A stretch of 64,000 bases of DNA from Candidatus Eiseniibacteriota bacterium (GCA_963717935.1 CAVQXP010000004.1:1280001-1344000), one strand, 5' to 3'. Positions 1-61,660 are shown, counted from the stretch's first letter. The notes: generated by a model from the letters alone, not told the origin. Translations and numbers: made by a program.

Positions 1-140
1 CGCGACATCAGCGCCGGCACCTCGACCTGGAGATCGATCCGGTCCAGCACCGGTCCGCTCACCCGCGCGTGGTGCTGCGCGAGATCGGTCGGCGTGCACT
101 TGCAGCCCCGGCGTGGATGTCCGAGCCAGCCGCACTTGCA
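1..140 (-). pseudogene. comM: Detached 3'-half fragment of comM starting at the CKCG motif; runs off the left edge of the window
   Basis: Minus strand reads CKCGWLGHPRRGCKCTPTDLAQHHARVSGPVLDRIDLQVEVPALMS. By hand alignment it is 111/140 nt and 41/46 aa identical to 5397-5536 of the intact comM. No start codon or 5' half is attached. Confidence 0.92.
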
Positions 141-580
141 CCGTTGCGTTGCCTTTCTGCAATCTCCGCCTTGTTGGCCGCCGACCTCGTGTGTTCCCAA
201 GGGGTTACCCGCAGGCGCCCCGGTCGCTCGGGGAGCGCATACGCCAGCGACGGATGGACCTGGGGCTGACGCAACGAACCCTTGCCGAGCGGCAGGGCTG
301 CTGGCCGGAGACGGTCGCGGCGTGGGAAAGGGGCGAGAGCGAGCCACTGGCCCGGCGGTGGCCAGCGATCGAGGCGGTCCTCGGAACGGGGCTCGTCCTG
401 GAATGGGGCGGCCTCCCGGGGCGGGTCCGGGCCGCCCGGCTCCGGCTGGGACTCACGCAGGAGCAGGTCGCTGCCCGTACCGGGCTCGATCCTCGGACGG
501 TTCGGAACGTCGAGACCGGGCGGCATGGGCCGAGCCGGAGGACTGCCGAGCGGTTGGCGGCGGTCCTCGGCACACTGTGA
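113..580 (+). CDS. XRE-family regulator with two tandem HTH domains (start uncertain)
   Basis: Two Cro/CI-type HTH units: LGERIRQRRMDLGLTQRTLAERQG...WERGESEP and GRVRAARLRLGLTQEQVAARTGLDPRTVRNVETGRHGP. Confidence 0.85.
   Translation: MDVRASRTCTVALPFCNLRLVGRRPRVFPRGYPQAPRSLGERIRQRRMDLGLTQRTLAERQGCWPETVAAWERGESEPLARRWPAIEAVLGTGLVLEWGGLPGRVRAARLRLGLTQEQVAARTGLDPRTVRNVETGRHGPSRRTAERLAAVLGTL
121..140. repeat. 20-bp identical core CCGAGCCAGCCGCACTTGCA (att-like), copy 1
   Basis: Identical to 5517-5536. Homology to comM stops abruptly at position 141. Confidence 0.85.
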
Positions 581-3071
581 GCCCCAGCCCGCCAATGAGG
601 GCGGGACGAGCGTTGCGGCTCGGCTTCGCCGCCCGGAAACTTCCCTTGCCCGCCGTCTGCCATGGGGGTGTACTGTGCAACGGACGCACGCCCCGCCGCG
701 GAAACAAGGACTGCTGACCACCGGACCTCATCTCCGACTCTCTGGCACGGCGGGATCGTGGGGGCCGCCGGCGGGACTCGACTCGCTAATCGAAATGAGT
801 GCGCAAGCGCCCGCTGGCTTGTTGGCGTGCGGAATCACACGTGTTCTGACGATGGGAGGCCCACCCATGACAATCAGACTGGCTGTCTTGGTGCTGGTGT
901 TCGCCGCGTTCCATCCCTTGCCCGTGGTGGCGCGAACTCCGACCAACGATGCGGCCGCCTTCCGCACCTTTGATCTTTACTCGGACCGCGCCGGGGCGGT
1001 AGGGACTCTGGATCACCTCAACTTCTCCTCCTCCTACCCTTCCTACCTGATCAGTCCCGCCTACATGGTGATCCACACGGTCGGAGGCGTTCCCGATACG
1101 GTTGCGCTCCTTCACCTGCAGCCGAACGATGCCACGGGGATGGAGGTGAACGGGAGTACCCCGACGTCCTACGCCGAGTACGCGGTGGTACCGCCAATAC
1201 TCGCCACCTCCATCAGCGTCAGCGTCAACGCCGATGTCGTCTTCGCGGGGCTCGGTCAGTACTACGACTTCCTGAAGCCCCTGGCCACGATCACGGTCAC
1301 CTACGAAGACGCTTCGACGTGGATGGACACGTTGCGCGTGGGCCAACACATCAGGACCTGGCTGAGCGGGAGCATCACCTGTTTGGGGGATCTCTGGTAC
1401 ACCTACAACACGCCGCCGTTCGACCAGTACGCGGTCCCTCTGTATGCCAGCGGGGGCGTGTTCATGGACATGCAAGAGGTCCGGCTCCCGCACGTGCCCA
1501 AGAAGATAGCCCTGATCCGAGTGCAAGCCATCGCGCTCGACCACTTCTGCAGCATCTACAATCCGCACCTCTACGCTGGCTACCATCTCCACGCTGTCTC
1601 GATCTGGCCGACGTTCAACGTCGCAAACGCCTCGTCGCAGCCTGTCGTGTGGCAGTCCCAGTTCACGAACGTGGACCACGGCGGCTACATGTTCGGCGGC
1701 ATCCCCGTCGGCACCCGACGACTGATGAACCAGACCGCGTGTCAGGTCGCATCCCAGGCGATGTGCTACACGTACAGTGGCTTCAATTGCACGCCGACAG
1801 CTCTCAACACGTATCTTCAGCAGAATAGAGGCTACGTGCCAGATCAAGTGGCCATCGTGACGTCCGTCGCACCGGGCGGAGCCTCGATTCGCTATACGGC
1901 TACAGGAAAGACAACTCTGAAGGTCGGCGACAGATTCCTCGTTGAGCACGGCACCTACACGAACCCGCTCGCAACGTACCAGGTGACGGTCGCGGGTCGC
2001 CTTGGCCAAGCATCTCGCGTCGCAACCCACAACGCGGCTGTTCCCTCGGGCGACGATCCCGGTCGTGTGTACTGGAAGATGAAGCCTCGGGTTGCCGACG
2101 GGTTCACCAGCAGCCCACAGCTTCGCTCGATTGACCTCTACGACTCGCCGCAGCTTGCTGCTCAGGTCGAGAGCCTGCTCGTGCGGGACATCGCGGTGCA
2201 ACTGAACGTGCCCGACCACTTCGTCGTCGCGTCGGGCTGGACCTCGTCGTTCCGCCCGGATGGCAGCGCACGAGGGACCTACGCGATCAAGGACCCCTTC
2301 GACGACAGGGACTACACCAAGCTCATCGAAGGGAAGTACGCCAACAAGTTCGCGATGGCCCGCTACGTTGTCCCGACTGGCGCGCTGGAGGTGGCGGGCA
2401 GTGTCGCGGCGCTGAGTGACCCCCCGGGGCTTGGCATCCTCGCCAGTGGCGCTCGCCGCGTCGAGGTCATCGACCCGCTCGGCCGACACATGCTGCGCGA
2501 CGCCAGTACGGGGGAAGGCATCTACGAGATTCCGGACGCCTGCATCGAGGACGTCTCCTCAGAGCACGACAACGGCGGGGACGTGGACGACCCGCTGACC
2601 GGCTACGACATTGAGATTCCGACGACGGTCGATGGGCACTACACGGTGACCGCGTACTCAGACGACGGCCTCTCGCTGAGCGCGAACGGCTACACGTCGT
2701 CGGGCATCTTCGCTTCGGACGGCGCCGTGGACACGACTGCGGCGCCCGTGGGCAATATCTACGACGTGCTCTACTCGGGGTCGGGGCAATCGGTCTCGGT
2801 AAGCCACACCGCCACGCTTGGCGTGAACATCACGTCGCCCCTGTTCGGCCCGAGCCGTCTGCGGGTGCGCCAGAGCCCTGCTACGGGTCCCGTGGAGTTC
2901 GTCATCATTGCCGCGGAGATGACCGCAGACGTCATCGACGTGTTCGACGTTAGTGGTCGCCGTGTGGACGCGGTGCAGGTGGACGGCGGCACAGGCACGC
3001 GGACGATGCTTTGACCCCCAGTTCAGCGAGACACCTCCGCAGGGTACCATTGAGGTCCTGGGAGGGCAGTC

Positions 3072-3446
3072 ATGGAGAACGTGGCCAAGGGTTCCGATGG
3101 GCGCCGACTGTTCACCGCCGAGTTCAAGCGCACGCAGATCGATCGGATCTTGAAGGGGGAGATCACCGCCGCGGAGCTGAGTCGTGAGCTCGGCGTGGCG
3201 CGCACGCTGATCCAGCGCTGGAAGTACTTGGTTACCAAGGGGGCGGAGGCCGCGGTGGGCTCGAACGGCGAGGTCGTCGCCGTGGCCGAGCTGCGGGCGG
3301 CGCAGGGGCGGATCAAGGAACTCGAGCGGCTGGTGGGTAAACAGGCCATGGAGTTGGAGATCCTGCGCGTGGCGCGCGACGAGGTAAAAAAAAGACCGCG
3401 CTACTACGGCGTGTCCGCGAAGCGACCGGAGGGTCGGTCGCGATGA
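3072..3446 (+). CDS. IS3-family transposase OrfA (HTH)
   Basis: RRLFTAEFK...ELSRELGV...LIQRWK and coiled coil IKELERLVGKQAMELEILR, ending at the -1 frameshift motif. Confidence 0.92.
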   Translation: MENVAKGSDGRRLFTAEFKRTQIDRILKGEITAAELSRELGVARTLIQRWKYLVTKGAEAAVGSNGEVVAVAELRAAQGRIKELERLVGKQAMELEILRVARDEVKKRPRYYGVSAKRPEGRSR

Positions 3447-4267
3447 TCTGCCGCACGCTGCACATCGGCCGCGCGACGGCCTACCGCAAGGATCGCCCGC
3501 GACCTCGGCGCTATCGCCGGCAGGAGGACGAAGTGGTGCTGGCCCAACTGCGGCAGATGCTACGCGAGCGCGCCAGCTACGGCTATCGCCGCGCCCGCCG
3601 GATCGTCAATCGCCAGTTCGGCACCACCTACAACCGCAAGCGGATCCAGCGGGTGATGCGCCTCTATGGCCTGGCACTGCCGGTCCGGGGTCGCCGTCGC
3701 CGCGGGCGCCGGCACGAGGGCCAGGTCGAGTGCGTGATCTCGAACCAGCGGTGGTGCTCGGACGTGCTGGAGATCGCGTGCTGGAACGGCGAGGTCGTGC
3801 ACCTGGCGTTCGCGCTCGACTGCTGCGACCGCGAGGTCCCGGCCCACGTCGCGACGCCGTACCCGACGTCGGGGATCGAGATCCGCCGGCTGATCCGCAA
3901 GACCGTCTTCGCGCGCTACGGGAACGAGAAGCCCGCGGTGCCGATCGAGTGGCTCACCGACAATGAGGGGATCTACACCGCACTCGAGACGGTGATCGAG
4001 GCCGAGCGGCACCACCTGGCGCCGATCACGACGCCGGTGGCGAGCCCGGAATCCAACGGCATGGCCGAGGCGTTCGTGAACACCTTCAAGCGCGACTACG
4101 TGGCAGGTGGCGACTTGGCCTCGGCGGCACGCGTGCTGGAGCAGATCCCTGGCTGGATCGAAGACTACAACACCTTCGCGCCGCACTCCTCGCTCGGGAT
4201 GCTGTCCCCGGCCGAGTTCCGACTCGAACAGCAGACAGTTGCAGACACCGGGTGTCTCACGAAATAG
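3443..4267 (+). CDS. IS3-family transposase OrfB (DDE/rve)
   Basis: YGYRR, WCSD, ALDCCDRE, WLTDNE, SPESNGMAEAFVNTFKRDY, HSSLGMLSPAEF, all typical of IS2-group OrfB. Confidence 0.95.
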   Translation: MICRTLHIGRATAYRKDRPRPRRYRRQEDEVVLAQLRQMLRERASYGYRRARRIVNRQFGTTYNRKRIQRVMRLYGLALPVRGRRRRGRRHEGQVECVISNQRWCSDVLEIACWNGEVVHLAFALDCCDREVPAHVATPYPTSGIEIRRLIRKTVFARYGNEKPAVPIEWLTDNEGIYTALETVIEAERHHLAPITTPVASPESNGMAEAFVNTFKRDYVAGGDLASAARVLEQIPGWIEDYNTFAPHSSLGMLSPAEFRLEQQTVADTGCLTK

Positions 4268-4388
4268 GGGTCAAAGCAACGATCACATGGGACTGGCGCA
4301 CAATCGGCACCCGCTCTGGCGTCTACCTCGCCCGGCTGCGCTCTCGGGCCAACGAGACGGCTCGGTTCGTCATCCTCCGTTGACGAAC

Positions 4389-5003
4389 ATGAAGCGAGCG
4401 TTCTACGGGGTAGTGGCCTGCGTGGTCCTGGGCGTGGGAGCATGCGCGTTGCGCTCCAGCGCGCCCTCCAGCACTTCCGGGAAGTTCTTGCAGGTGCTCG
4501 TGAGCATCTACGCCTTCGGTGATGCGCGTGTGGGTGCTGTGCTCATCGACCGCGAGGGCCGCCGAACGGGCTGGAACGTTGATCGACCGATCCGGCAGAT
4601 ACCGGGAGTGTTGAACGGGTACGGCTCCGACGTGGGCATTACTGACGAGAGCACGCCGGCGGATACGACGGAACCACCCCCCGCTGACACGGTACCCGGA
4701 CATCCCGAGCCGACGCCCATTTACTACTACCTCTCGATTCAGGATTCAGCAGGAACACCCGGCCTGCTCCGGGAGGGCGGGTGTGAGCTCCGCCTCGTCC
4801 CCGTTGCGGGAGGTCGCGTCAGCCTCGCGATTACCGGGACGGGGGCCGGATTCAGCCCGTGCCAAGACACGACCTCGTTCACGGTCACACCTGGCGTCCC
4901 CACGCGATGGTGGCTGAGTTGGAGCAAGAGTGGGAACAAGTGCGTCGTGGACCTCTCCAGAATGAACCGGAGCAGGCCGCGACCTCAGTCGCGCGTCAGG
5001 TAG
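4389..5003 (+). CDS. Putative lipoprotein of unknown function
   Basis: ATG 5 nt after the reconstructed stop of the upstream gene. MKRAFYGVVACVVLGVGAC is a basic/hydrophobic/lipobox-like signal. Confidence 0.7.
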   Translation: MKRAFYGVVACVVLGVGACALRSSAPSSTSGKFLQVLVSIYAFGDARVGAVLIDREGRRTGWNVDRPIRQIPGVLNGYGSDVGITDESTPADTTEPPPADTVPGHPEPTPIYYYLSIQDSAGTPGLLREGGCELRLVPVAGGRVSLAITGTGAGFSPCQDTTSFTVTPGVPTRWWLSWSKSGNKCVVDLSRMNRSRPRPQSRVR

Positions 5004-5062
5004 CATCTTTGGGCTTGCGCTTCGCGCAGGCAATGAACGAAAGCCGTGTGTTGCGGGGCTGA

Positions 5063-6577
5063 TTACCGGGCTGCGGCATGCCACCTTACTTCGGTTGCCC
5101 GGTACTGCAACGCCTCCGCCAACGCGCGCACGCTGATGCGCTCCTCGCCTGCCAAGTCCGCGATCGTGCGCGCCACGCGCGTCGCGCGGTGCACGGCCCG
5201 GGCGCTCATCCCGCCGCGGTCCACGGCGTCGGCGACGAGCCGGCGCCCGACCTGATCCAGCGCGCAGCACTCCTCGAGCCGAGCGGGCGGCAGGAGCGCG
5301 TTCAGGCAACCGCGCTCACGCTGATGCGCCCGCGCCGCAAGCACGCGCGCGCGTACCACTGCGCTCGACTCGCCCGGCATCGCCGCCTGCAGCTCGCGTG
5401 ACGTGAGCGCCGGCACCTCAATCTGAATATCAATCCGATCCAACACTGGCCCACTAACTCGCGCGTGATGTTGTGCTATATCAGTCGGAGTGCAGCGGCA
5501 GCCGCGTCGCGGATGCCCGAGCCAGCCGCACTTGCAGGGATTCATCGCCGCCACGAGCAGTGCGCGGGCGGGGAACTCGCTGGCGCCGCTGGCGCGGACG
5601 ATGGTGACCGTGCCGTTCTCGAGCGGCTGGCGCAGGGCGTCGAGCAGGCCGCGCGCGAACTCCGACAACTCGTCGAGGAAGAGCACGCCGTGGTGGGCGA
5701 GCGAGATCTCGCCGGGGCGCGGCGGGGAGCCGCCGCCCACCAGGCCCGCGGGCGAGACCGTGTGGTGCGGTGCGCGGTAGGGGCGGCGCGTCATGAGTCC
5801 CCGCCCGGGGCGGCGCAGCCCGGCGGCGGAGTGCAGGCGCGTGACCACCAGCGCCTCGTCGGGCTCGAGCGGCGGGAGGATGCCGGGCAGGCGCCTGGCG
5901 AGCATGGACTTGCCCGCGCCGGGCGGGCCGATGTAGAGCAGGTGGTGCCCGCCGGCAGCGGCGATCTCGAGCGCCCGGCGCGCCACGGCCTGCCCGCGCA
6001 CCTCGCCGAGGTCCTCGCTCGTGGCGGGCTCCGGGTCCGGCGGCGCCGGGGCCTGGCGGGGCGACTCCGCGCCGCGCAGCCACTCGACCGCCTCGTGCAG
6101 GGTGCCCACGGCGTGCACGACGAGGCCCTCGACGAGCGCGGCCTCCGGGGCGCAGGCGGAGGCGCACAGCAGGCTCGTTACGCCCGCGCGCCACAGCGCC
6201 TCGGCCAGGGGCAGGGTGCCCCGCACGCCGCGCAGGCGGCCGTCGAGCGCGATCTCGCCCAGCGCGGCCGCGTCTTCGAGACGCTCGCGCGGGGCCTGGC
6301 CGGTGGCGACCAGCACGCCGAGGGCGACGGCGAGGTCGGCCGAGGCGCCTTCCTTGCGGCGCTCGGCGGGCGCGAGGTTCACGGTGACCTTGCGGTCGGG
6401 GAGCTGGAAGCCCGCGTTGCGCAGCGCGGGCCAGACCCGGTCGCGCGCCTCGCGGCCGGTGGCGTCGGGGAGCCCGACGAGGACGAAGCCGGGCAGGCCG
6501 GGCCCGACATCCACCTCGCACTCGACCGGGAGCGCCTCCAGGCCCCAGAGGGCGGCCGTCCGCACGCGGCTCAGCAT
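5063..6577 (-). CDS. comM: ComM / YifB family Mg-chelatase-like AAA+ ATPase (intact, 504 aa)
   Basis: [10 protein letters not shown]..., VGLPD, VNLAPA, Walker A GPPGAGKS, RAPHH, PGEISLAHHGVLFLDE, AAMNPCKCG, SGPVLDRID, EALQYR. Confidence 0.96.
   Translation of the reverse strand: MLSRVRTAALWGLEALPVECEVDVGPGLPGFVLVGLPDATGREARDRVWPALRNAGFQLPDRKVTVNLAPAERRKEGASADLAVALGVLVATGQAPRERLEDAAALGEIALDGRLRGVRGTLPLAEALWRAGVTSLLCASACAPEAALVEGLVVHAVGTLHEAVEWLRGAESPRQAPAPPDPEPATSEDLGEVRGQAVARRALEIAAAGGHHLLYIGPPGAGKSMLARRLPGILPPLEPDEALVVTRLHSAAGLRRPGRGLMTRRPYRAPHHTVSPAGLVGGGSPPRPGEISLAHHGVLFLDELSEFARGLLDALRQPLENGTVTIVRASGASEFPARALLVAAMNPCKCGWLGHPRRGCRCTPTDIAQHHARVSGPVLDRIDIQIEVPALTSRELQAAMPGESSAVVRARVLAARAHQRERGCLNALLPPARLEECCALDQVGRRLVADAVDRGGMSARAVHRATRVARTIADLAGEERISVRALAEALQYRATEVRWHAAAR
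5517..5536. repeat. 20-bp identical core (att-like), copy 2, inside intact comM at codons 348-354
   Basis: Identical to 121-140. Confidence 0.85.
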
Positions 6578-6640
6578 GGGCCTGCTCCCGGGGAGGCGGG
6601 TCGCGGGGGTGACGCCCGGAGCAACGCAAGCACCGCGCCA
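6440..6640. repeat. 201-bp direct repeat copy 1 (comM codons 1-46 plus 63 bp upstream)
   Basis: Matches 10811-11011 at 200/201 positions (A6632 vs G11003). Confidence 0.95.
6626..6640 (-). promoter_or_regulatory. sigma54 (-24/-12) promoter of comM
   Basis: Minus strand TGGCGCGGTGCTTGC fits TGGC-N7-TTGC with GG-N10-GC spacing, 49 nt above the ATG. Confidence 0.7.
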
Positions 6641-6868
6641 ACCCCAGGAACGCAACGGGCTCTCAATCCCGCGCGCCGGTTCGACCCTCCAGCGTGAGCT
6701 ACAGCACGCTCCGGGGCCACGCAGACCCTCGCGGCCAGGACCAGCCTCTCGATAAGCCACGCCCCCAAAAATACCCAATGGTCGACCTCTTCTTCGGATT
6801 GCCCCGAGGACAATCACGCAGTGCTTGCGGTAGCAGGGCTCGGCCGGGCACGTGCGTATATCTTTCCC

Positions 6869-6896
6869 TTGACACTGACCTGGCGAGGAATATCTT
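6869..6896 (+). promoter_or_regulatory. sigma70-type promoter upstream of the S8 peptidase
   Basis: TTGACA-16 nt-TATCTT. Confidence 0.55.
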
Positions 6897-7183
6897 CCGC
6901 ACAGGTTCTCAGGGGAACCCAAAGCAAGGGTTCACGTGACCTTGCCTAGGAGGGTTGTGATTGGTGCAACGCCTCTCTCGATTCGTGAGGCAACCGAATC
7001 GCTCCATAGTTCCAGACTACATTCTAACTGAGCGGCAGAACGCACCTCGTGACACGCGACTCACCCGTCTCCTGTCCATTCATCGTCCAATGGAGGAAGG
7101 ATGAGGAAGTAGCATGGGCCGCATCATGACCACACTACCCGGAAGTTTTCTGCGTCTCAGCAAGCCGCCCTGTGGAGGGTTCT

Positions 7184-9943
7184 ATGCGCTGGTACACAGT
7201 AGTGCTTCTCCTGGGATGTTGTGGCGTGGCATACGCAGGAGACAACCAAACGGGCCAAGCATGTCTGAGTTGGTCCGCAGAAGGCGTGGTCACAAGGGAC
7301 GACGCTGCTCCTCAAGCGCTATTCCCGGTCTTCGTACACGTTGACGGCGCTCCAAGCATCAGCGGTCTCTCTGTATGTCTCCGCTGGAACCCAAGCTCGT
7401 ACGTGTTGGTGAATCCACCGGCGGATTGGAAGGCTGATGTCGGATACAACGTTAATGTGGCTCCGCACGCCACGTTCGCAGACGACGCCGCATTTGACGC
7501 GACAATTGTCTTTCCAGCCCCTCCTGGCGATCACGCAGTCGTAGCCTATTGGTTCCGATATGCGGCCACGGGGGCACCGCCCCCTGCCACGTTCTGCCTC
7601 GCTCAAGTCAAGGCAATGGATGGCGCTGGCGCAATCGATGATCTCGCGCTGCTTGATGGATTGAGTCTGGGCGGCCGCGCCGTGACTGACGGGTGTCCGC
7701 CGACTCCTTCGCACATTGCCAGGGGAAAGCTGCTCGTGCTGATGCGTGCGGAGGCTCTCAGCTCAGGGAGTGACCAGGAGCTAGCGTCCCCTGAGCAACT
7801 GTTGGCTTCTCGCGGAGCAGCAGACTCCCTTGCCGCCGCCGGGGTGCTTGCCATGGTGCGGATCTCCCCGGTGGGCCTGAGCGGCGGCACGTGTTCGCGC
7901 AATCTGATCGGTGAACCGATTGTGCTGCCTGACCCCGGCGCGGTCTACGTGGCCCATCTGCGTCCTGACGTTCTGGCGAAACGTGCCGCATTCGCGCTCT
8001 CGGACGTTAGCGCCGTCAGATCCGCACGACCAATTCCCCTCGTGCAACTCTACCACACGCCACAGGATCCTATGTTCAGCCGGCAATGGGCGCTCAGCAA
8101 CACGTCCCAGACCTATGGCTGTACGCTTCCTGCCTTCAATGCGAACACAGATATTCATCTGCCTGCTGCACTGGACATGACGGTCGCTCGTGGAGCTGGG
8201 GTGCGCGTCGGGGTATTGGACTCAGGGGTTCAAAGTGACCACCCGGAGCTTATAGGTCGCGTTGAGGCAGGTCACAACGCCATAGCACACTCATATGGGT
8301 TGGACTGGGCGACTGAAGACAGCACGTCGCACGGCACGGCGGTGGCCGGCATCATCGCGGCTGCAAGTGACAACGGCATTGGTATAGCTGGCATCGCGGA
8401 TGCCGCGACGATCGTGCCAATCCGCCTTAACTCCGGATACTACTTTCCGCTGGAGGTTGGGACCAGTTGCATGTCTGACTTCCCCAGCTTCCCGCTAGAT
8501 GCTGCGCTAGACGGGTTATGGTGGGCGACTGATTCTACGTCGACGATACCGATTCTCAACATGTCGTGGGGCACCGTAGCTCCGGAGGAGTACACTCCCT
8601 ATCTTGCGACGGCCTGCCTTGCGGGACTGTTGAAGGGGCAGTTTCTGGTTGCGGCATCTGGAAACGACAACTGGGGCCATCCCGACTGGGTTCCGGCACC
8701 AGCCAGGTACGCGAAGCGGGTGTTTTCGGTCGGGGCGGTCTTCGGTAATGGTCTGCGATGGGATGACCGAGTGCTCCCCCAGCCGCTAGGTGGCTGGGGA
8801 ATGTTCAGCGCGTTGTCAAGCTGGGTGTTGGGCTACCCGGTCCCCATCGGCTCGAACTGGGGCCCTCACCTAACTGCCGTGGCCCCTGGCGGACACATGA
8901 TCGCTGCGCTGCGTATGTACACCTTGGTCGACTCGCTCTATCGCTGGAAATACATTTTCGACTGCGCCCACAAGTATTTCGAAGTTGACTCGTGTGGCGT
9001 GAGTTATGCAGACATGGACTCCGTGGAATTCGGTGGGACATCTGCGGCGGCGCCAACCGTTGCGGGTGTGGCCGCTCTGATACTCGGAGAGCATCTAGGG
9101 GCCTTGGTGGGCGAGGACATAACCCAAACACTTATCCGGACGGCGGTGGATCCGATCACTGGCGCTCCAAGCAGTGGGAGAAGCGACACGTTAGGGGCAG
9201 GGATGATCCGTGCCGACCGGGCACTGGCCTTTCTCGCTTCCCCGAAAATCATCGATCATCCCCGTGCCACCAGCCTCGCTGTTGCGGACGTAGACACGGT
9301 ACAGGTCAGCTTCACAGGAGGCACGCCCGGGATTCCTGATGGCCAGTACGATGCTGTTAGGTATCGCCTGGCCGGTCGCGCAGCGTTCTCTCAAGCGTTG
9401 TACGCAGATACTGGGTCGACATGGGTGCGGGCATCAGGAACTCAAGGCATGCTGGATGTCTCTACGTACAACTACTTGGCGGATGTGCCGTTTGGGCGAA
9501 TCACGTCCATAGACACATTGGGCGTTGACGTGGAGACCTTTGTCTACCAGGTCTTGAGTGGTGGCAACGTGCTCGCGTGGTATCCGTGCGACACCGCGTC
9601 AGCCGCGGTGGCAACGACTGCTGTCGGGTATCCCCCCGCCGTAGCGGGAGTGGGTGTAGAGCCTGCGCTTCGCTTTGGAATCACGGTTTCCCCTACCCCA
9701 ACCCGAGGACGGGCAGTGCTGAGCCTCCTCTGCCCGGGGCCGGCAATTGTCGAGGCAGGTATCTACGACGTGCAGGGGCGGGTTGTGCGTCACCTTGGTC
9801 GTCGGTCAGTGGCAGGAGGAACTGTGCAGTATGTCTGGGACGGTCGGCGAGATGACGGTGGATATGCAGCGGACGGCGTGTACTATGCGCGCGGGATCGC
9901 CAATGCTCAGTCGAAGGTCGTAAGGGTTGTCTTACTCAGATGA
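7184..9943 (+). CDS. Secreted S8 (subtilisin-like) serine peptidase with C-terminal FlgD Ig-like/T9SS-like domain
   Basis: Signal peptide MRWYTVVLLLGCCGVAYA. Triad motifs VGVLDSG, HGTAVAGIIAA, GTSAAAPTVAG. Tail IYDVQGRVVR...VWDGRRDDG...GVYYAR...VVLLR. Confidence 0.93.
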   Translation: MRWYTVVLLLGCCGVAYAGDNQTGQACLSWSAEGVVTRDDAAPQALFPVFVHVDGAPSISGLSVCLRWNPSSYVLVNPPADWKADVGYNVNVAPHATFADDAAFDATIVFPAPPGDHAVVAYWFRYAATGAPPPATFCLAQVKAMDGAGAIDDLALLDGLSLGGRAVTDGCPPTPSHIARGKLLVLMRAEALSSGSDQELASPEQLLASRGAADSLAAAGVLAMVRISPVGLSGGTCSRNLIGEPIVLPDPGAVYVAHLRPDVLAKRAAFALSDVSAVRSARPIPLVQLYHTPQDPMFSRQWALSNTSQTYGCTLPAFNANTDIHLPAALDMTVARGAGVRVGVLDSGVQSDHPELIGRVEAGHNAIAHSYGLDWATEDSTSHGTAVAGIIAAASDNGIGIAGIADAATIVPIRLNSGYYFPLEVGTSCMSDFPSFPLDAALDGLWWATDSTSTIPILNMSWGTVAPEEYTPYLATACLAGLLKGQFLVAASGNDNWGHPDWVPAPARYAKRVFSVGAVFGNGLRWDDRVLPQPLGGWGMFSALSSWVLGYPVPIGSNWGPHLTAVAPGGHMIAALRMYTLVDSLYRWKYIFDCAHKYFEVDSCGVSYADMDSVEFGGTSAAAPTVAGVAALILGEHLGALVGEDITQTLIRTAVDPITGAPSSGRSDTLGAGMIRADRALAFLASPKIIDHPRATSLAVADVDTVQVSFTGGTPGIPDGQYDAVRYRLAGRAAFSQALYADTGSTWVRASGTQGMLDVSTYNYLADVPFGRITSIDTLGVDVETFVYQVLSGGNVLAWYPCDTASAAVATTAVGYPPAVAGVGVEPALRFGITVSPTPTRGRAVLSLLCPGPAIVEAGIYDVQGRVVRHLGRRSVAGGTVQYVWDGRRDDGGYAADGVYYARGIANAQSKVVRVVLLR

Positions 9944-10039
9944 TAGCCGAGCTATCACATGCCCGATCGATGGCGTCGGACGGTTGAGGACTCACCCACG
10001 GCCACCCGGACGAGGGACGTGCTCGGGGCGTTTCGTCTA

Positions 10040-10068
10040 TTGACGCGATGGGATCTTTGGCGCATGCT
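10040..10068 (+). promoter_or_regulatory. sigma70-type promoter candidate
   Basis: TTGACG-17 nt-CATGCT upstream of GGAGG/GTG10145. Confidence 0.45.
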
Positions 10069-10144
10069 TGTTGTGGCCGGGACAGGGGCAACCTGTCGTC
10101 ACTTGCCTCTGAAATCGGTCGGAGGCAATTGTTCGGGAGGAACC

Positions 10145-10744
10145 GTGAAGACGCTCATCGCCATTCTTGTCCTCGCGATGGTGGGTTTAGTGCCCCCGAT
10201 CGCCCGAGCGACGGCCGCTGACAGCTGCGGATATGCATATGCGGACGACTTCACCACGAACGCCGTAGAGGTCGACAGCTACTCGCATACAAAGATTGAG
10301 GAGAGCTTCTGCTTTACGTGTGGAAGTGGATGGCTCATGTTTGCCACCGATTCGACCGGGAACCGCGGCCTTGGCTTCTATCCTGGCCTGCTATACGGCT
10401 CGCAGAACGCCTATGTGACGTACCGATTTCCGCAGGACGGCATCGCAGGAGGGATGGTCGGCAGTCTGGCATTCGACGCTCTGTGCTATGTCGGTCTTAC
10501 TGGGGATGGTGGGTTTGCTTGGGCCGATGTAGTCGTCCTCTATGACGACGTGTACGCAGCAACGGCGCACATCTCAGAACCTGGCCACTACAGGTTCGAA
10601 CTAGCACCGCCCCTGACGGCGTCGAAGGTGTACCTCCACATCACTGGTCAGCTGTTCCGGTTGGACAATCTGTCCGTATGCTTGGACGTCTCGACGCCAA
10701 CCCGCACCACGACGTGGGGAAGGCTCAAAGCGTTCTACCGTTGA
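10145..10744 (+). CDS. Secreted hypothetical protein with C-terminal TWGRLKAFYR tail
   Basis: GGAGG RBS, GTG start, signal peptide MKTLIAILVLAMVGLVPPIARA, ends STPTRTTTWGRLKAFYR. Confidence 0.8.
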   Translation: MKTLIAILVLAMVGLVPPIARATAADSCGYAYADDFTTNAVEVDSYSHTKIEESFCFTCGSGWLMFATDSTGNRGLGFYPGLLYGSQNAYVTYRFPQDGIAGGMVGSLAFDALCYVGLTGDGGFAWADVVVLYDDVYAATAHISEPGHYRFELAPPLTASKVYLHITGQLFRLDNLSVCLDVSTPTRTTTWGRLKAFYR

Positions 10745-10750
10745 CGGTAA

Positions 10751-10948
10751 TCAGCCAACACTCTTGCGGGCCGGTCCTCTTGGATTGGTCCGCATCGTCT
10801 TGTATCCTAAGTCGCGCGCCTCGCGGCCGGTGGCGTCGGGGAGCCCGACGAGGACGAAGCCGGGCAGGCCGGGCCCGACATCCACCTCGCACTCGACCGG
10901 GAGCGCCTCCAGGCCCCAGAGGGCGGCCGTCCGCACGCGGCTCAGCAT
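10751..10948 (-). pseudogene. comM: Truncated comM 5' fragment (46 codons fused to 19 unrelated codons)
   Basis: [46 protein letters not shown] is followed by [19 protein letters not shown]. Confidence 0.92.
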
Positions 10949-11011
10949 GGGCCTGCTCCCGGGGAGGCGGGTCGCGGGGGTGACGCCCGGAGCAACGCAA
11001 GCGCCGCGCCA
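10811..11011. repeat. 201-bp direct repeat copy 2
   Basis: Matches 6440-6640 with one mismatch. Confidence 0.95.
10997..11011 (-). promoter_or_regulatory. sigma54 promoter, second copy (in front of truncated comM)
   Basis: Minus strand TGGCGCGGCGCTTGC. Confidence 0.65.
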
Positions 11012-11197
11012 GCTTGCGGTCAGGCCGGCGGGGGCGGGGCGGCCGCTGAGCTCCGGAGCCTCTGCAGGCCCGGGCGCCGCGGCCATCTGCCACTGCCCGG
11101 GCCGATGCCCGCCGGGGACGCTGCGGCAGCACTCGATTTGCGCTCAACCTCCTGGGCTGCTGGTCGATAACCCACTCCTGGACGCCCACCACCGGGA

Positions 11198-13534
11198 GTG
11201 ACGCCATTGCGGCAAGGACGCTCGGAACCCACTCATCATCCAGAGCACGATCTCGCACGAACGCTGGTGGGTGAACTCACCGCGGCGTTCTCGCCACGCG
11301 AGGCCGCGGCCGAGGTCCGGCTTCTCCTGAAGTCGCTGCGGATCGCGCTGCCCGGTGCGGGTCAGCGTCGATTGCGTGTCGTCCTCACGCGTGCGGCCCG
11401 CCGCTGGCGTCGGCGGGGCCTGGGTGACGACGCCGTGGCGCGGATGGTGCTGGAGTTGGCCGCGCCGGGGGTCCTCCGCACCATCCCGCGCGCCCTCCCG
11501 GGGTCCGGCTGCGCGCTGAGGGCCGTGTTGGACTCGGTGCCCATCCCCATGATCACCGGGGACCGGGATCTGCGGGTCACCGTGTGCAATGCCGCCTTCG
11601 AGGAACTCGTCCACGAGTCGAACGCCGCGCTCGAGGGCAGGCCGCTGTCGGAGCTGCTGGGGCCCGAATGCCGTGAGGACCTGCCCCGGCAGCTCGAAGC
11701 GATGAACTCCGGCGCCGGTGCGATGCAGATCGGCCGCATGACCCTGGTCAGCGTGCCCGGGGCGGAGTTCCTCGGGGCATGGATCCCGCTCCGGCAGCCT
11801 GACGGAGTGGGGACCTGGCTGCTGCGGTTGGCCTCGGGCTCCGCCGCGTCGCTCGAGACCCTGGGCGAGCAGTTGCGCCAGGAGGAATCGCAGAAGGAAA
11901 AACTCACCGCGCTGCTCACCGTGAGCAACGCGGTGGTGACCTCGCTCGAGCTGGACCAGATCCTCGACACCATCGCGCGTGAGGTCCGCAAGGTCATCCA
12001 GGTGGACGAGTGCATCGTATTCCTGCTCGACGAGGCGCAGAAGGTGCTCGTGCCGGCGGCCTGCGACGTGCAGGAGTTCCGCGACGAGGTCATGGCCATC
12101 CGCCTGCCGGTGGGCCAGGGCGTGACGGGCAGCGTGGTGCTGACCGGAAGGGGCGAGATCGTCAACGGTGCCCTGGATGACCCGCGGGCCGTCCAGGTGC
12201 CGGGCACGCCGGTCGAGCAGTCGGCGCTGCTCTGCGTCCCCCTGCTGGTGCGCGAGGAGGTGGCCGGGGCCATCACGCTCACGCGGGCCGGAGGCCGCGT
12301 CTTCCAGAACGAGGACCTGGAGCTGGCGACGCTGTTCGCCGGCCAGTGCAGTGCGGCCATCTCGAATGCGCGCCTCTACGAGGAGATCCGGCGCGCCTAC
12401 CACGAGCTGCGCGAGGCCCAGTCTCAGCTGGTGCAGTCGGCCAAGCTCAACGCCCTCGGCGAGATGGCGGGTGGCGTGGCCCACGACTTCAACAACATCC
12501 TGGCCGCGATCCTGGGGCGCGCGCAGTTGCTGCTGCAGGGTGTTTCGGACGAGGGGCAGCGCCGCCAGCTCGAGATCATCGAGCGGGCCGCCCTCGACGG
12601 TGCGCAGGCGGTGCGCCGGGTGCAGGAATTCACGCGCCTGCGGCAGGACGAGCACTTCGAGGCACTGGACGTAAAGGAGGTGCTGCAGGGCGTGCTCGAT
12701 CTGACGCGCTCGGCCTGGGAGGCGGAGTCCAAGCGGCGCGGCATCGCGCTGGCGGCCGTCCTCGACCTGCGCGCCGGGCAGCTCGTCGCGGGCAATGCCT
12801 CGGAGCTGCGCGAGGTCTTCACGAACCTGGTCCTGAACGCGCTCGACGCCATGCCGTGGGGTGGCACGCTCACGCTCTCGAGCGCCGACGCGGATGGCGA
12901 GGTCTGCATCCGCGTGAGCGACACCGGCGTGGGGATGGACGCCGAGACGCGCGGGCACATCTTCGACCCCTTCTTCACCACCAAGCTGGTCAAGGGCACC
13001 GGGCTCGGCCTCTCGGTGGCCTACGGCATCATCACGCGCCACCACGGCCGCATCGAGGTCGAGTCCGAGCCGGATTGCGGCAGCGTCTTCAGCGTCTGGC
13101 TGCCTGCGGCGCTGGCGCGCCAGGCGGAGCCCGAGGTGCCATCGGACGCGCCGTTGCCGCGCCTGCGCGTGCTGGCGGTGGACGACGAGGAGCCGGTGGT
13201 GCAGGTGCTCGGCGACCTGCTCGCCGCGCTGGGCCAGGAGGTGGAGATCGCCCTGGGCGGCGCGGCGGGGCTCGAGCGCTACTCACCCGAGCGTTTCGAC
13301 GTGGTGTTCACCGACCTCGGCATGCCCGGGGTGAACGGCTGGGACGTGGTGCAGACGGTCAAGTCGCGCTCACCGGACACGCCGGTCGTGATCGTCACCG
13401 GCTGGGGGGCGCAGATCGAGGGTGGGGCCTTGCGCGCGCGGGGCGCGGACTACGTGATCCCCAAGCCCTTCTCGCTCGAAGATGTCCGGGAGGTGCTGCG
13501 GCAGCTGAGCGTGGGCCCCGCACGTGCCGCCTGA
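11198..13534 (+). CDS. Hybrid sensor histidine kinase (PAS-GAF-HisKA-HATPase-receiver)
   Basis: H-box GGVAHDFNNIL, N-box NLVLNALDAM, DTGVGM, FDPFFTTK, GTGLGL, receiver LAVDDE...FTDLGMPG...KPF. Start uncertain. Confidence 0.93.
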   Translation: MTPLRQGRSEPTHHPEHDLARTLVGELTAAFSPREAAAEVRLLLKSLRIALPGAGQRRLRVVLTRAARRWRRRGLGDDAVARMVLELAAPGVLRTIPRALPGSGCALRAVLDSVPIPMITGDRDLRVTVCNAAFEELVHESNAALEGRPLSELLGPECREDLPRQLEAMNSGAGAMQIGRMTLVSVPGAEFLGAWIPLRQPDGVGTWLLRLASGSAASLETLGEQLRQEESQKEKLTALLTVSNAVVTSLELDQILDTIAREVRKVIQVDECIVFLLDEAQKVLVPAACDVQEFRDEVMAIRLPVGQGVTGSVVLTGRGEIVNGALDDPRAVQVPGTPVEQSALLCVPLLVREEVAGAITLTRAGGRVFQNEDLELATLFAGQCSAAISNARLYEEIRRAYHELREAQSQLVQSAKLNALGEMAGGVAHDFNNILAAILGRAQLLLQGVSDEGQRRQLEIIERAALDGAQAVRRVQEFTRLRQDEHFEALDVKEVLQGVLDLTRSAWEAESKRRGIALAAVLDLRAGQLVAGNASELREVFTNLVLNALDAMPWGGTLTLSSADADGEVCIRVSDTGVGMDAETRGHIFDPFFTTKLVKGTGLGLSVAYGIITRHHGRIEVESEPDCGSVFSVWLPAALARQAEPEVPSDAPLPRLRVLAVDDEEPVVQVLGDLLAALGQEVEIALGGAAGLERYSPERFDVVFTDLGMPGVNGWDVVQTVKSRSPDTPVVIVTGWGAQIEGGALRARGADYVIPKPFSLEDVREVLRQLSVGPARAA

Positions 13535-13556: not shown

Positions 13557-13602
13557 AACGAGTGTGCGCCCGCCCCGGGTGGGGGGCGGGCGCACACTCG
13601 TT
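13557..13602. terminator. 20-bp perfect-stem hairpin between convergent genes
   Basis: AACGAGTGTGCGCCCGCCCC-GGGTGG-GGGGCGGGCGCACACTCGTT. Confidence 0.7.
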
Positions 13603-61502: not shown

Positions 61503-61660
61503 GCATCGCCGGGACGGGCCAGGACCGAGCGCACGGTGCCTCTGCTCGGCCCTGGCCCGTCTCGGCGATGCGGCCGCAAGGCGATGCGACAGGAGGGGCT
61601 GGAGTGGTCAGGACCGAGCGCATGGTGCCTCTGCTCGGTGCTGACCACTCCAGCCCCTCC
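61503..61660. repeat. Two 69-nt hairpins (61503-61571, 61592-61660) sharing a 29/30-nt identical apical core
   Basis: Core CAGGACCGAGCGCAYGGTGCCTCTGCTCGG at 61520-61549 and 61609-61638. The basal stems differ in sequence but are each self-complementary. Confidence 0.85.

Follow-up and report, generated by a model that had tools for sequence, protein, structure and literature searches.

How can a gene be bordered on both sides by cargo, with a duplicate of one of its own ends beyond each block of cargo, and still be whole? The question is raised by the comM locus at the start of a stretch of 64,000 nucleotides (nt) from Candidatus Eiseniibacteriota bacterium (GCA_963717935.1, CAVQXP010000004.1:1280001-1344000), which we call the window. 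Read from the left edge, a comM 3' fragment is followed by a regulator gene and secreted cargo, by the intact comM on the minus strand, by further secreted cargo and by a second copy of the comM 5' end; this order of features and their coordinates, first given in a preliminary description of the locus, were confirmed (Table 1). Our proposal, to which we assign a probability of about 60%, is that two unrelated insertions flank comM: the left one would be a site-specific element that restores the gene it enters, and the right one a piece of foreign DNA bounded by a direct repeat.

The gene between the two inserts is an intact open reading frame (ORF) of 504 codons (5063-6577, minus strand). It encodes the Pfam domains ChlI, Mg_chelatase and Mg_chelatase_C, its product matches the YifB model TIGR00368 above the model cut-off, and it agrees with 200 of 200 columns in the N-part and 80 of 81 in the C-part that are conserved to at least 90% in our comparison set of 120 homologues. 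The full ORF, its domains and its conserved columns confirm the earlier claim that comM is intact between the cassettes, and support the further claim of two independent cassettes that left comM functional, in the sense of two insertions leaving an intact and well-conserved gene.

The same gene is a composite. The host chromosome has a GC content of ~72% in the window, and the third-position GC (GC3) of host genes averages 0.92. In comM, GC3 drops from ~0.97 at exactly the 20-nt sequence that the gene shares with the left edge of the window, hereafter the core, and reaches a 30-codon minimum of 0.47; values at or below 0.60 occur in only 1.6% of 798 host windows. Codons ending in A or T number 10 out of 347 before the core and 34 out of 157 from the core onward. 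Because the switch in GC3 falls at the core, comM is a chimera. At the protein level, the closest full-length relatives are 95% identical over residues 1-347 and 82-85% over residues 348-504, so that the C-part diverges threefold more than the N-part (15% vs 5% for P0001); across all 120 relatives the ratio is 1.27. The comM that is expressed thus has a native 5' part up to the core and, from there on, a 3' end of other history. Both 3' ends, the intact and the displaced one, group in one narrow clade, and the donor was therefore a close relative. Directly past the core lies a patch of synonymous A/T-ending codons (codons 355-393, 5399-5515), with 19 such codons out of 39 as compared with ~3% elsewhere in the gene. 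The patch holds a TGnTATAT-like motif on the plus strand, which in a circular form of the left element would lie ~63 nt upstream of the start of the regulator gene. It could be an attachment arm, a promoter of the regulator that is specific to the excised circle, or simply the composition of the donor.

The preliminary description had called both junctions sharp, and they are: similarity between the comM copies stops at 140/141 on the left, where the core encodes the CxCG motif, and at 6439/6440 on the right, at codon 46/47. On the left, the displaced 3' end is kept at the far end of the insert and starts at the presumed crossover core, and the start codon of the regulator, an Xre-like gene with helix-turn-helix (HTH) domains, is only 9 nt from the core junction (TTG 149). 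The block of identity is 20 nt long; around it, one pair of arms is dissimilar (the Xre side against the comM 5' part) and the other pair is 79% alike. Positions 1-140 and 5397-5536 differ at 29 sites; 22 of these are third codon positions, and at 5 the encoded residue changes. Since the differences are mostly synonymous, the two sequences represent two diverged working alleles, not a gene and its rotted copy. The fragment runs off the window, and a database ORF (P0228) that is identical to it over 19 overlapping residues runs on to a normal ComM C-terminus. Apart from the two repeats, tblastn and self-blastn of the window detected no comM-like piece.

The left junction recurs in other genomes. 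A protein collection was searched for short proteins matching ComM residues 348-504, and the best 120 matches were examined: 41 of them have a non-ComM sequence, [K/M]ATQx, directly before CxCGW (38 fit the strict pattern), a reading shared by the ORF of the fragment in the window (3..347, minus strand). Several of these ORFs sit on contigs of 11 to 395 kb and are therefore not contig-end truncations. The 'KATQ' junction is the antisense reading of the first codons of the Xre gene, and one ORF (P0143) resembles the window across all 69 residues upstream of the motif, that is, across the antisense of this gene. The converse search, with the ORF 113-580 as a query against 1.84 billion representatives, gave 610 matches at E<=1e-10, 150 of which were inspected. 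Many of these homologues begin at query residue 13, which corresponds to the TTG at position 149; an ALPFC[H/N]-type N-terminus is present in 77 of the 150, with 21 ORFs starting exactly there. Where the ORF extends upstream, the strict antisense-CxCGW signature is found in 12 cases out of 42, and P0292 has antisense comM in another frame. In some genomes the Xre protein at this junction is only 35-45% identical to that of the window. Many genomes thus contain an Xre-like gene that starts within ~10 nt of a comM 3' fragment beginning at the CxCG codons, and such a recurrent junction identifies a family of site-specific elements in which one arm is conserved. The family is widespread and apparently undescribed; full-text literature searches on comM or yifB insertion returned no description of comM restoration or of the Xre-type junction. 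The plasmid collection, searched with the Xre protein, gave generic HTH matches only, and none of 80 comM loci obtained by scanning genome contigs with comM holds the Xre gene or the cargo of the window. Separately, three ORFs (P0128, P0179 and P0193) have other non-ComM sequence directly before (N)PCxCG, unlike the Xre type, which hints at further families at this site.

We propose that the left insertion (141-5536) belongs to a family of integrative elements whose attachment site would be the comM sequence encoding CxCG. One arm of the element would carry a comM 3' end, and the other the Xre-like HTH gene, its first codons lying within ~25 nt of the crossover. Integration would join the 5' part of the host comM to the 3' end brought by the element, leaving the gene whole, and would push the former host 3' end to the far side of the cargo.

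How the displaced ends have evolved bears on this scheme. When 241 sequences are placed in a tree by their C-terminal 125 residues, the 41 junction-type fragments do not group together but are interspersed with full-length C-termini; the median p-distance from a fragment to the nearest full-length sequence, 0.160, equals the value between full-length sequences. At 69 conserved columns, fragments have 2.29 mismatches and full-length proteins 2.10. The sequence nearest to the window's intact C-terminus is itself a fragment from another genome (P0121, p-distance 0.08). Being undecayed, the fragments are not old pseudogenes, and they would fit either recent or repeated displacement or selection on both ends as the element comes and goes.

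A bolder reading, which we consider rather unlikely, takes the second of these options further. The CxCG site of comM in Eisenbacteria-like bacteria would be a self-regenerating landing pad, at which integration recreates an intact comM together with the attachment site. A recombinase acting in trans could then stack, exchange and excise cargo devoid of an integrase, such as the secreted and T9SS-type (type IX secretion) proteins of the window; the first Xre codons (ALPFC) could double as a recombinase half-site; the current and displaced 3' ends could alternate in expression and both be under selection, which would explain why fragments have not decayed; and the A/T patch could serve as an attachment arm, or as an Xre promoter formed only in the excised circle.

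In a more conservative reading, the left insertion would be one old event in the ancestor of a large Eisenbacteria clade, since then vertically inherited and immobile, its integrase lost and its cargo later turned over. The junction is indeed shared by lineages that are only 68-93% identical to the window in the ComM C-terminus, and vertical descent would also yield junction-type fragments across the whole tree; the window has no integrase. Full-length fragment ORFs with almost as few mismatches as complete genes are not what such a history predicts, and neither is the position of P0121, which would be unexpected if the two ends had long been separate lineages; moreover, breaks at the motif occur in many full-length relatives and in many short contigs. 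We regard a single old event as improbable.

If the left insert is instead a member of a site-specific family, as we propose, a recombinase should have moved it. Between the core repeats at 121-140 and 5517-5536 there is no integrase. The earlier statement that the cassettes contain no recombinase holds for integrases in both inserts and fails for the left cargo, which contains the transposase genes of an IS3-family insertion sequence (IS), the only recombinase-type genes in the region. This IS has overlapping HTH and DDE/rve ORFs, terminal inverted repeats and an intact 4-bp target duplication (ACGA, at 3003-3006 and 4279-4282); it scores 175.6 bits with the NCBIfam model transpos_IS3, against a cut-off of 160, and its GC3 is host-like (0.86-0.90). 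It is a later, independent secondary insertion that splits the sorting-type domain of a large secreted protein, and this domain resumes in frame after the IS. A role as the mobilizer of the cassette was ruled out, as its own 4-bp duplication lies within a cargo gene. With no recombinase of its own, the left element would therefore be either non-autonomous and moved in trans, or decayed.

The candidate that we tentatively place first, at slightly less than even odds, is a large serine recombinase. According to a survey, Mg-chelatase homologues are the commonest target of predicted site-specific large serine recombinases (12.4%), and competence genes are enriched among the targets (PMC10083194); the description of phage WO sr1WO places serine-recombinase integration in an Mg-chelatase gene, with HTH_XRE genes at the 3' end of sr1WO (PMC9203015). 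The phage collection adds a coincidence of sites. Most comM matches there are full-length genes or contig ends, but the complete genome of the Acetoanaerobium phage ANDSL2_ph1 (L083 4929-7089; PP197248.1 15550-17710) has an ORF that corresponds to ComM residues 189-350, ends in '...AAMNPCPC' and stops. The ORF overlaps the 3' end of the gene for a 546-residue protein with Resolvase, Recombinase and Zn_ribbon_recom domains. As the comM piece ends at the CxC codons, the attachment point of this phage lies within the same codons as the junction of the window, in a different phylum. A tyrosine integrase is the alternative for the left element, and a less probable one; another enzyme, or none, takes the remaining probability.

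Integration of ANDSL2_ph1 would fuse its ORF to the host comM 3' part and yield an N-terminally truncated ComM. An Evtepia phage annotated as complete, NatCom_42594 (L084 4205-5104, PV036445.1), has a 299-residue ORF that corresponds to ComM from its N-terminus to about the Walker B motif, after which come an antitoxin-like gene and a restriction-modification pair of SacI type, with no integrase in the 10 kb inspected. Two large serine recombinases of ~1000 residues (P0340 and P0368) carry several C-terminal Xre-type HTH_3 domains and are distant matches of the Xre gene; a link between them and the left element family is unproven.

The right insert has another anatomy. Positions 6440-6640 and 10811-11011 agree at 200 of 201 sites: 192 exact bases are followed by one mismatch (6632/11003) and 8 matches. 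The repeat comprises comM codons 1-46 and 63 nt of upstream DNA, which is all the native upstream DNA that the intact comM retains beside the first copy. On the kinase side, the second copy heads a stub of 65 codons (10754-10948, minus strand), an ORF whose end lies within the cargo. The insert is foreign in composition, with a GC content of 0.56-0.61 and GC3 values of 0.64 and 0.68 in its two genes, as compared with ~0.92 for the host. The sole close relative among the 80 comM loci, a 5.8-kb contig (L001) from a Candidatus Eisenbacteria metagenome-assembled genome (MAG) and the closest match in the reference collection (ComM 75% identical at the amino acid level; public ComM proteins reach 92%, the named ones being from Eisenbacteria), has the same kinase gene ~220 nt from the comM start without cargo. 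The 5' site is thus empty in this relative, which represents the ancestral arrangement. An alignment of the upstream regions of comM with L001 revealed no conserved block; a scan for promoters and terminators gave 2 promoter-like and 3 terminator-like signals, about as many as in shuffled sequences, and placed no comM promoter.

The right insertion (6641-10810) most likely arose, in our view, from circular DNA that already carried a comM 5' piece. Site-specific recombination near codon 46/47, with later homogenization of the repeats, would be one route, and a single crossover of RecA type another; near-perfect repeats without a conserved arm would fit a single RecA crossover by circular DNA equally well. 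A very long target-site duplication was considered as the source of the 201-nt repeat and dropped. A second insertion hot spot near codon 46/47 is faintly suggested by three database ORFs (P0241, P0254 and P0257), in which the similarity to ComM ends at residues 40-47 and gives way to a different sequence in each, P0241 being 98% identical and diverging after residue 47, and P0254 continuing into a DsbA-like thioredoxin domain; all three are on contigs of 569-1054 nt and possibly chimeric.

Additional comM pieces were found at only two of the 80 loci, neither of them at the CxCG site or codon 46. On a Desulfobacteraceae MAG contig (L037), 86 nt of the comM 3' end, starting near residue 435, occur twice (6824-6909 and 7925-8008, 97.7% identical), and the second copy stands where the contig ends, ~890 nt past comM in the downstream direction; possibly a further small insertion has duplicated an end of comM here, at another codon. 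On an Aerophobetes MAG contig (L049), a three-piece mosaic at 3960-4342, 1.6 kb downstream of comM, consists of pieces copied from inside and upstream of comM that are 87-95% identical to 1758-1856, 152-353 and 703-757.

The repeat on the right brings up the idea, already raised in the preliminary description, that cassettes are exchanged by homologous recombination, with comM pieces as arms for transformed DNA and no site-specific recombinase. At the right junction this idea stays live: a 201-nt repeat of 99.5% identity is ample for RecA, a single crossover with circular DNA yields just such a structure, and neither an integrase nor a conserved cargo-side end was seen. Homology arms fail to explain the left side because the comM piece of the element begins exactly at the crossover core. 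At least 41 other ORFs have a conserved non-comM arm next to this very codon, a site-specific signature in place of the crossovers that would otherwise be spread along 474 nt of 79% homology, and a double crossover would leave no displaced fragments. As an account of the whole locus we consider homologous exchange improbable, on a par with a single ancestral event. Least probable of all is an assembly artefact, in which the right insert or both inserts would be strain variants, or a small circle, mis-joined through shared comM sequence: perfect repeats, here of 192 nt, are classic sites of mis-joins and a chromosome plus a 4.37-kb circle sharing the repeat would give the same assembly graph as a true insertion, but the left junction type recurs in dozens of independent assemblies, the one site at which the repeat copies differ speaks for both being real, and P0228 is recorded on a 2.1-Mb contig (not necessarily that of the window), which suggests an assembly of long-read grade.

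Several observations weigh against our proposal of a site-specific element on the left and a repeat-bounded insertion on the right. Domain scans of the whole 64 kb, both inserts included, detected no integrase, and when 23 stop-free segments from non-coding parts of the cargo were compared with Pfam models, no decayed integrase emerged. No recombinase was seen with the left family, and our preference for the serine type comes from the coincidence of sites and from the literature; it is tyrosine integrases that more commonly go with a 20-nt block of identity and a gene end carried by the element. The two arms of the left element have no repeat in common longer than 9 nt. Which comM 3' end is ancestral here would be decided mainly on composition and geometry, and the protein comparison is at odds with our choice: residues 348-393 are 91-98% identical to the closest relatives in the intact gene and 83-89% in the displaced fragment. 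On the right, a search with the stub ORF returned 18 short ORFs, two of which look like frameshifts and one of which ends in adaptor sequence, and the stub tail was present in none of the 18, so that no conserved element end emerges; and a repeat with 99.5% identity would be unexpected for an element arriving from elsewhere.

What the inserts carry is largely exported. The preliminary description spoke of secreted cargo and of exported enzymes. All four cargo ORFs have an N-terminal hydrophobic, signal-like segment, one of them with a lipobox-like GAC; the term enzyme holds for one of the four, the S8 protease. This protease and the large secreted protein of the left insert end in the same sorting-type domain, and export by a type IX secretion system (T9SS) is plausible because the host encodes SprA. 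The large protein has no Pfam or NCBIfam family, only a hint of Peptidase_C39_2 (E=0.034), and no usable match in the protein atlas; the 199-aa protein of the right insert is related only to unnamed Krumholzibacteriota clusters (scores 0.89-0.91). The left insert, like the right one, is foreign in composition: GC3 of its cargo genes is 0.77-0.83, as compared with the host mean of 0.92. The notion of a hypervariable cassette locus for exported enzymes is, at this stage, a hypothesis. For the organism, the locus illustrates how it gains secreted proteases of the T9SS type along with exported proteins of unknown kind.

Table 1. Features of the comM locus, in window coordinates.
Feature	Position	Strand	Evidence or remark
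Displaced comM 3' fragment, codons 348-393 visible, continuing past the left window edge	1..140	-	79% identical to 5397-5536; Pfam Mg_chelatase; GC3 0.87
Left copy of the 20-nt core, presumed crossover region	121..140	.	Exact match to 5517-5536; C-K-C-G-W-L-G on minus strand
Xre-like gene with two HTH_3 domains, TTG start at 149	149..580	+	Pfam HTH_3 twice; ALPFC N-terminus; signature gene of the family
Large secreted protein, part before the IS; signal-like N-terminus, sorting-type C-terminal domain interrupted	849..3006	+	No Pfam/NCBIfam family; GC3 0.82
IS3-family insertion sequence (orfA 3072-3446, orfB 3443-4267)	3007..4278	+	Pfam HTH_Tnp_1, rve, rve_3; inverted repeats
Remainder of the sorting-type domain of the large protein	4279..4383	+	Frame-2 translation resembles the C-terminal end of the S8 protein
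Small lipoprotein-like secreted protein	4389..5003	+	No family found; GC3 0.77
Element-borne comM 3' part (putative), codons 355-504 plus stop	5063..5516	-	AT-ending codons; GC3 drop
Right copy of the 20-nt core, within intact comM	5517..5536	.	Exact match to 121-140
Native 5' part of comM, codons 1-347	5537..6577	-	GC3 0.97; 95% identical to closest full-length relatives
Direct repeat copy A, with 63 nt of upstream DNA and comM codons 1-46	6440..6640	.	Contiguous with comM body
Right insert, 4170 bp: 530-nt non-coding leader, S8 subtilase, 199/261-aa secreted protein	6641..10810	+	Pfam Peptidase_S8, FlgD_ig
S8 subtilase with FlgD_ig-type C-terminal domain	7172-9943	+	Pfam Peptidase_S8, FlgD_ig
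199/261-aa secreted protein	9959-10744	+	Signal-like N-terminus
Direct repeat copy B, adjoining native upstream DNA	10811..11011	.	Repeat alignment
PAS-GAF-histidine kinase-receiver gene, native neighbor, divergent from comM	11198..13534	+	Pfam domains; L001 synteny, 73% DNA identity

Past 11 kb, domain scans identified housekeeping genes (fatty-acid synthesis, IF-2, S15, PNPase, LptF/G) and the SprA-type T9SS protein. Rfam models gave no match at E<=0.1 on positions 1-12000. Two further features of the window were recorded. Directly past the histidine-kinase gene (13557-13602), a perfect inverted repeat of 20 nt, its halves 6 nt apart, resembles a terminator stem; and self-blast revealed, in the gap between the riboflavin kinase/FAD synthetase and S15 genes (61503-61660), two adjoining imperfect palindromes of ~70 nt (82-84% identical).

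That comM is a recurrent insertion dock, as the preliminary description had said, was already established (PMC10083194, PMC4774983, PMC10293859). In one of these reports, Tn6022/AbaR-type Tn7-like transposons and Tsy target the Walker B region of comM and leave comM 5' and 3' portions at their ends, and Tsy includes a small HTH protein; these elements disrupt comM and need TnsF along with either TnsABC or a tyrosine recombinase (PMC10293859). We rejected the Tn7-like and Tsy types for the window: the left junction is at codon 348, ~45 codons downstream of Walker B (residues 299-305), and TnsF, TnsABC and a tyrosine recombinase were not found. As for integrons, no integron-type integrase turned up in the general domain scans, which included no dedicated test, and the repeats of the window are comM gene ends.

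For the right insert, the nearest parallel is with the dusA-specific islands and prophages, which replace the 5' end of their target with island sequence and leave a remnant 5' end (PMC4482086). The right insert shares this geometry, with its new 5' end (63 nt plus 46 codons) and its leftover stub ORF. The dusA islands differ in having a dedicated tyrosine integrase and a short core, whereas the right insert has no integrase and a 201-nt duplicate of 99.5% identity.

For the left element, two kinds of known systems offer parallels. CIMEs (cis-mobilizable elements) are integrase-less derivatives located near tRNA or fda-type sites in streptococci and presumed to be moved by the recombinase of a related element; like them, the left cargo is flanked by attachment-site repeats and has no recombination genes of its own apart from those of the IS. 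The elements e14 and phage 21 at icd of E. coli are target-restoring lambdoid elements. They also insert into a coding sequence, supply an alternative 3' end and leave the displaced end beyond the element, with mostly synonymous differences between the two ends. The likeness to e14 at icd, drawn in the preliminary description, fits the left side, where comM GC3 switches at the core: the left element has the replacement gene end and the displaced end at the core, and lacks an integrase of its own. By contrast, e14 and phage 21 have their own tyrosine integrase beside the attachment site, and they differ from the left element in target gene and host phylum.

Large-serine-recombinase elements at comM/yifB share the target gene itself. 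ANDSL2_ph1 even shares the codon and has its comM piece beside the recombinase, but this piece is an internal one from the 5' side (aa 189-350), not a 3' end. In sr1WO, an XRE-type HTH gene stands at the element end that adjoins the 3' part of the target, with the same polarity as in the window (PMC9203015). The window differs in having no gene with the Resolvase, Recombinase and Zn_ribbon domains; and serine-recombinase elements are described as splitting the gene, whereas the left element restores its 3' end. This last difference matters for the interpretation of comM as a target. Insertions in comM are usually read as blocking natural transformation and so shielding elements from curing (PMC4774983, PMC10293859). 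The left family uses a conserved comM site yet repairs the gene, and thereby separates a convenient landing site from a hit meant to block transformation. Its undecayed displaced ends, together with a regulator that starts in the attachment arm, provide handles on how such elements are built and, should a serine recombinase be confirmed, a design in which integration recreates the target may interest users of integration tools.

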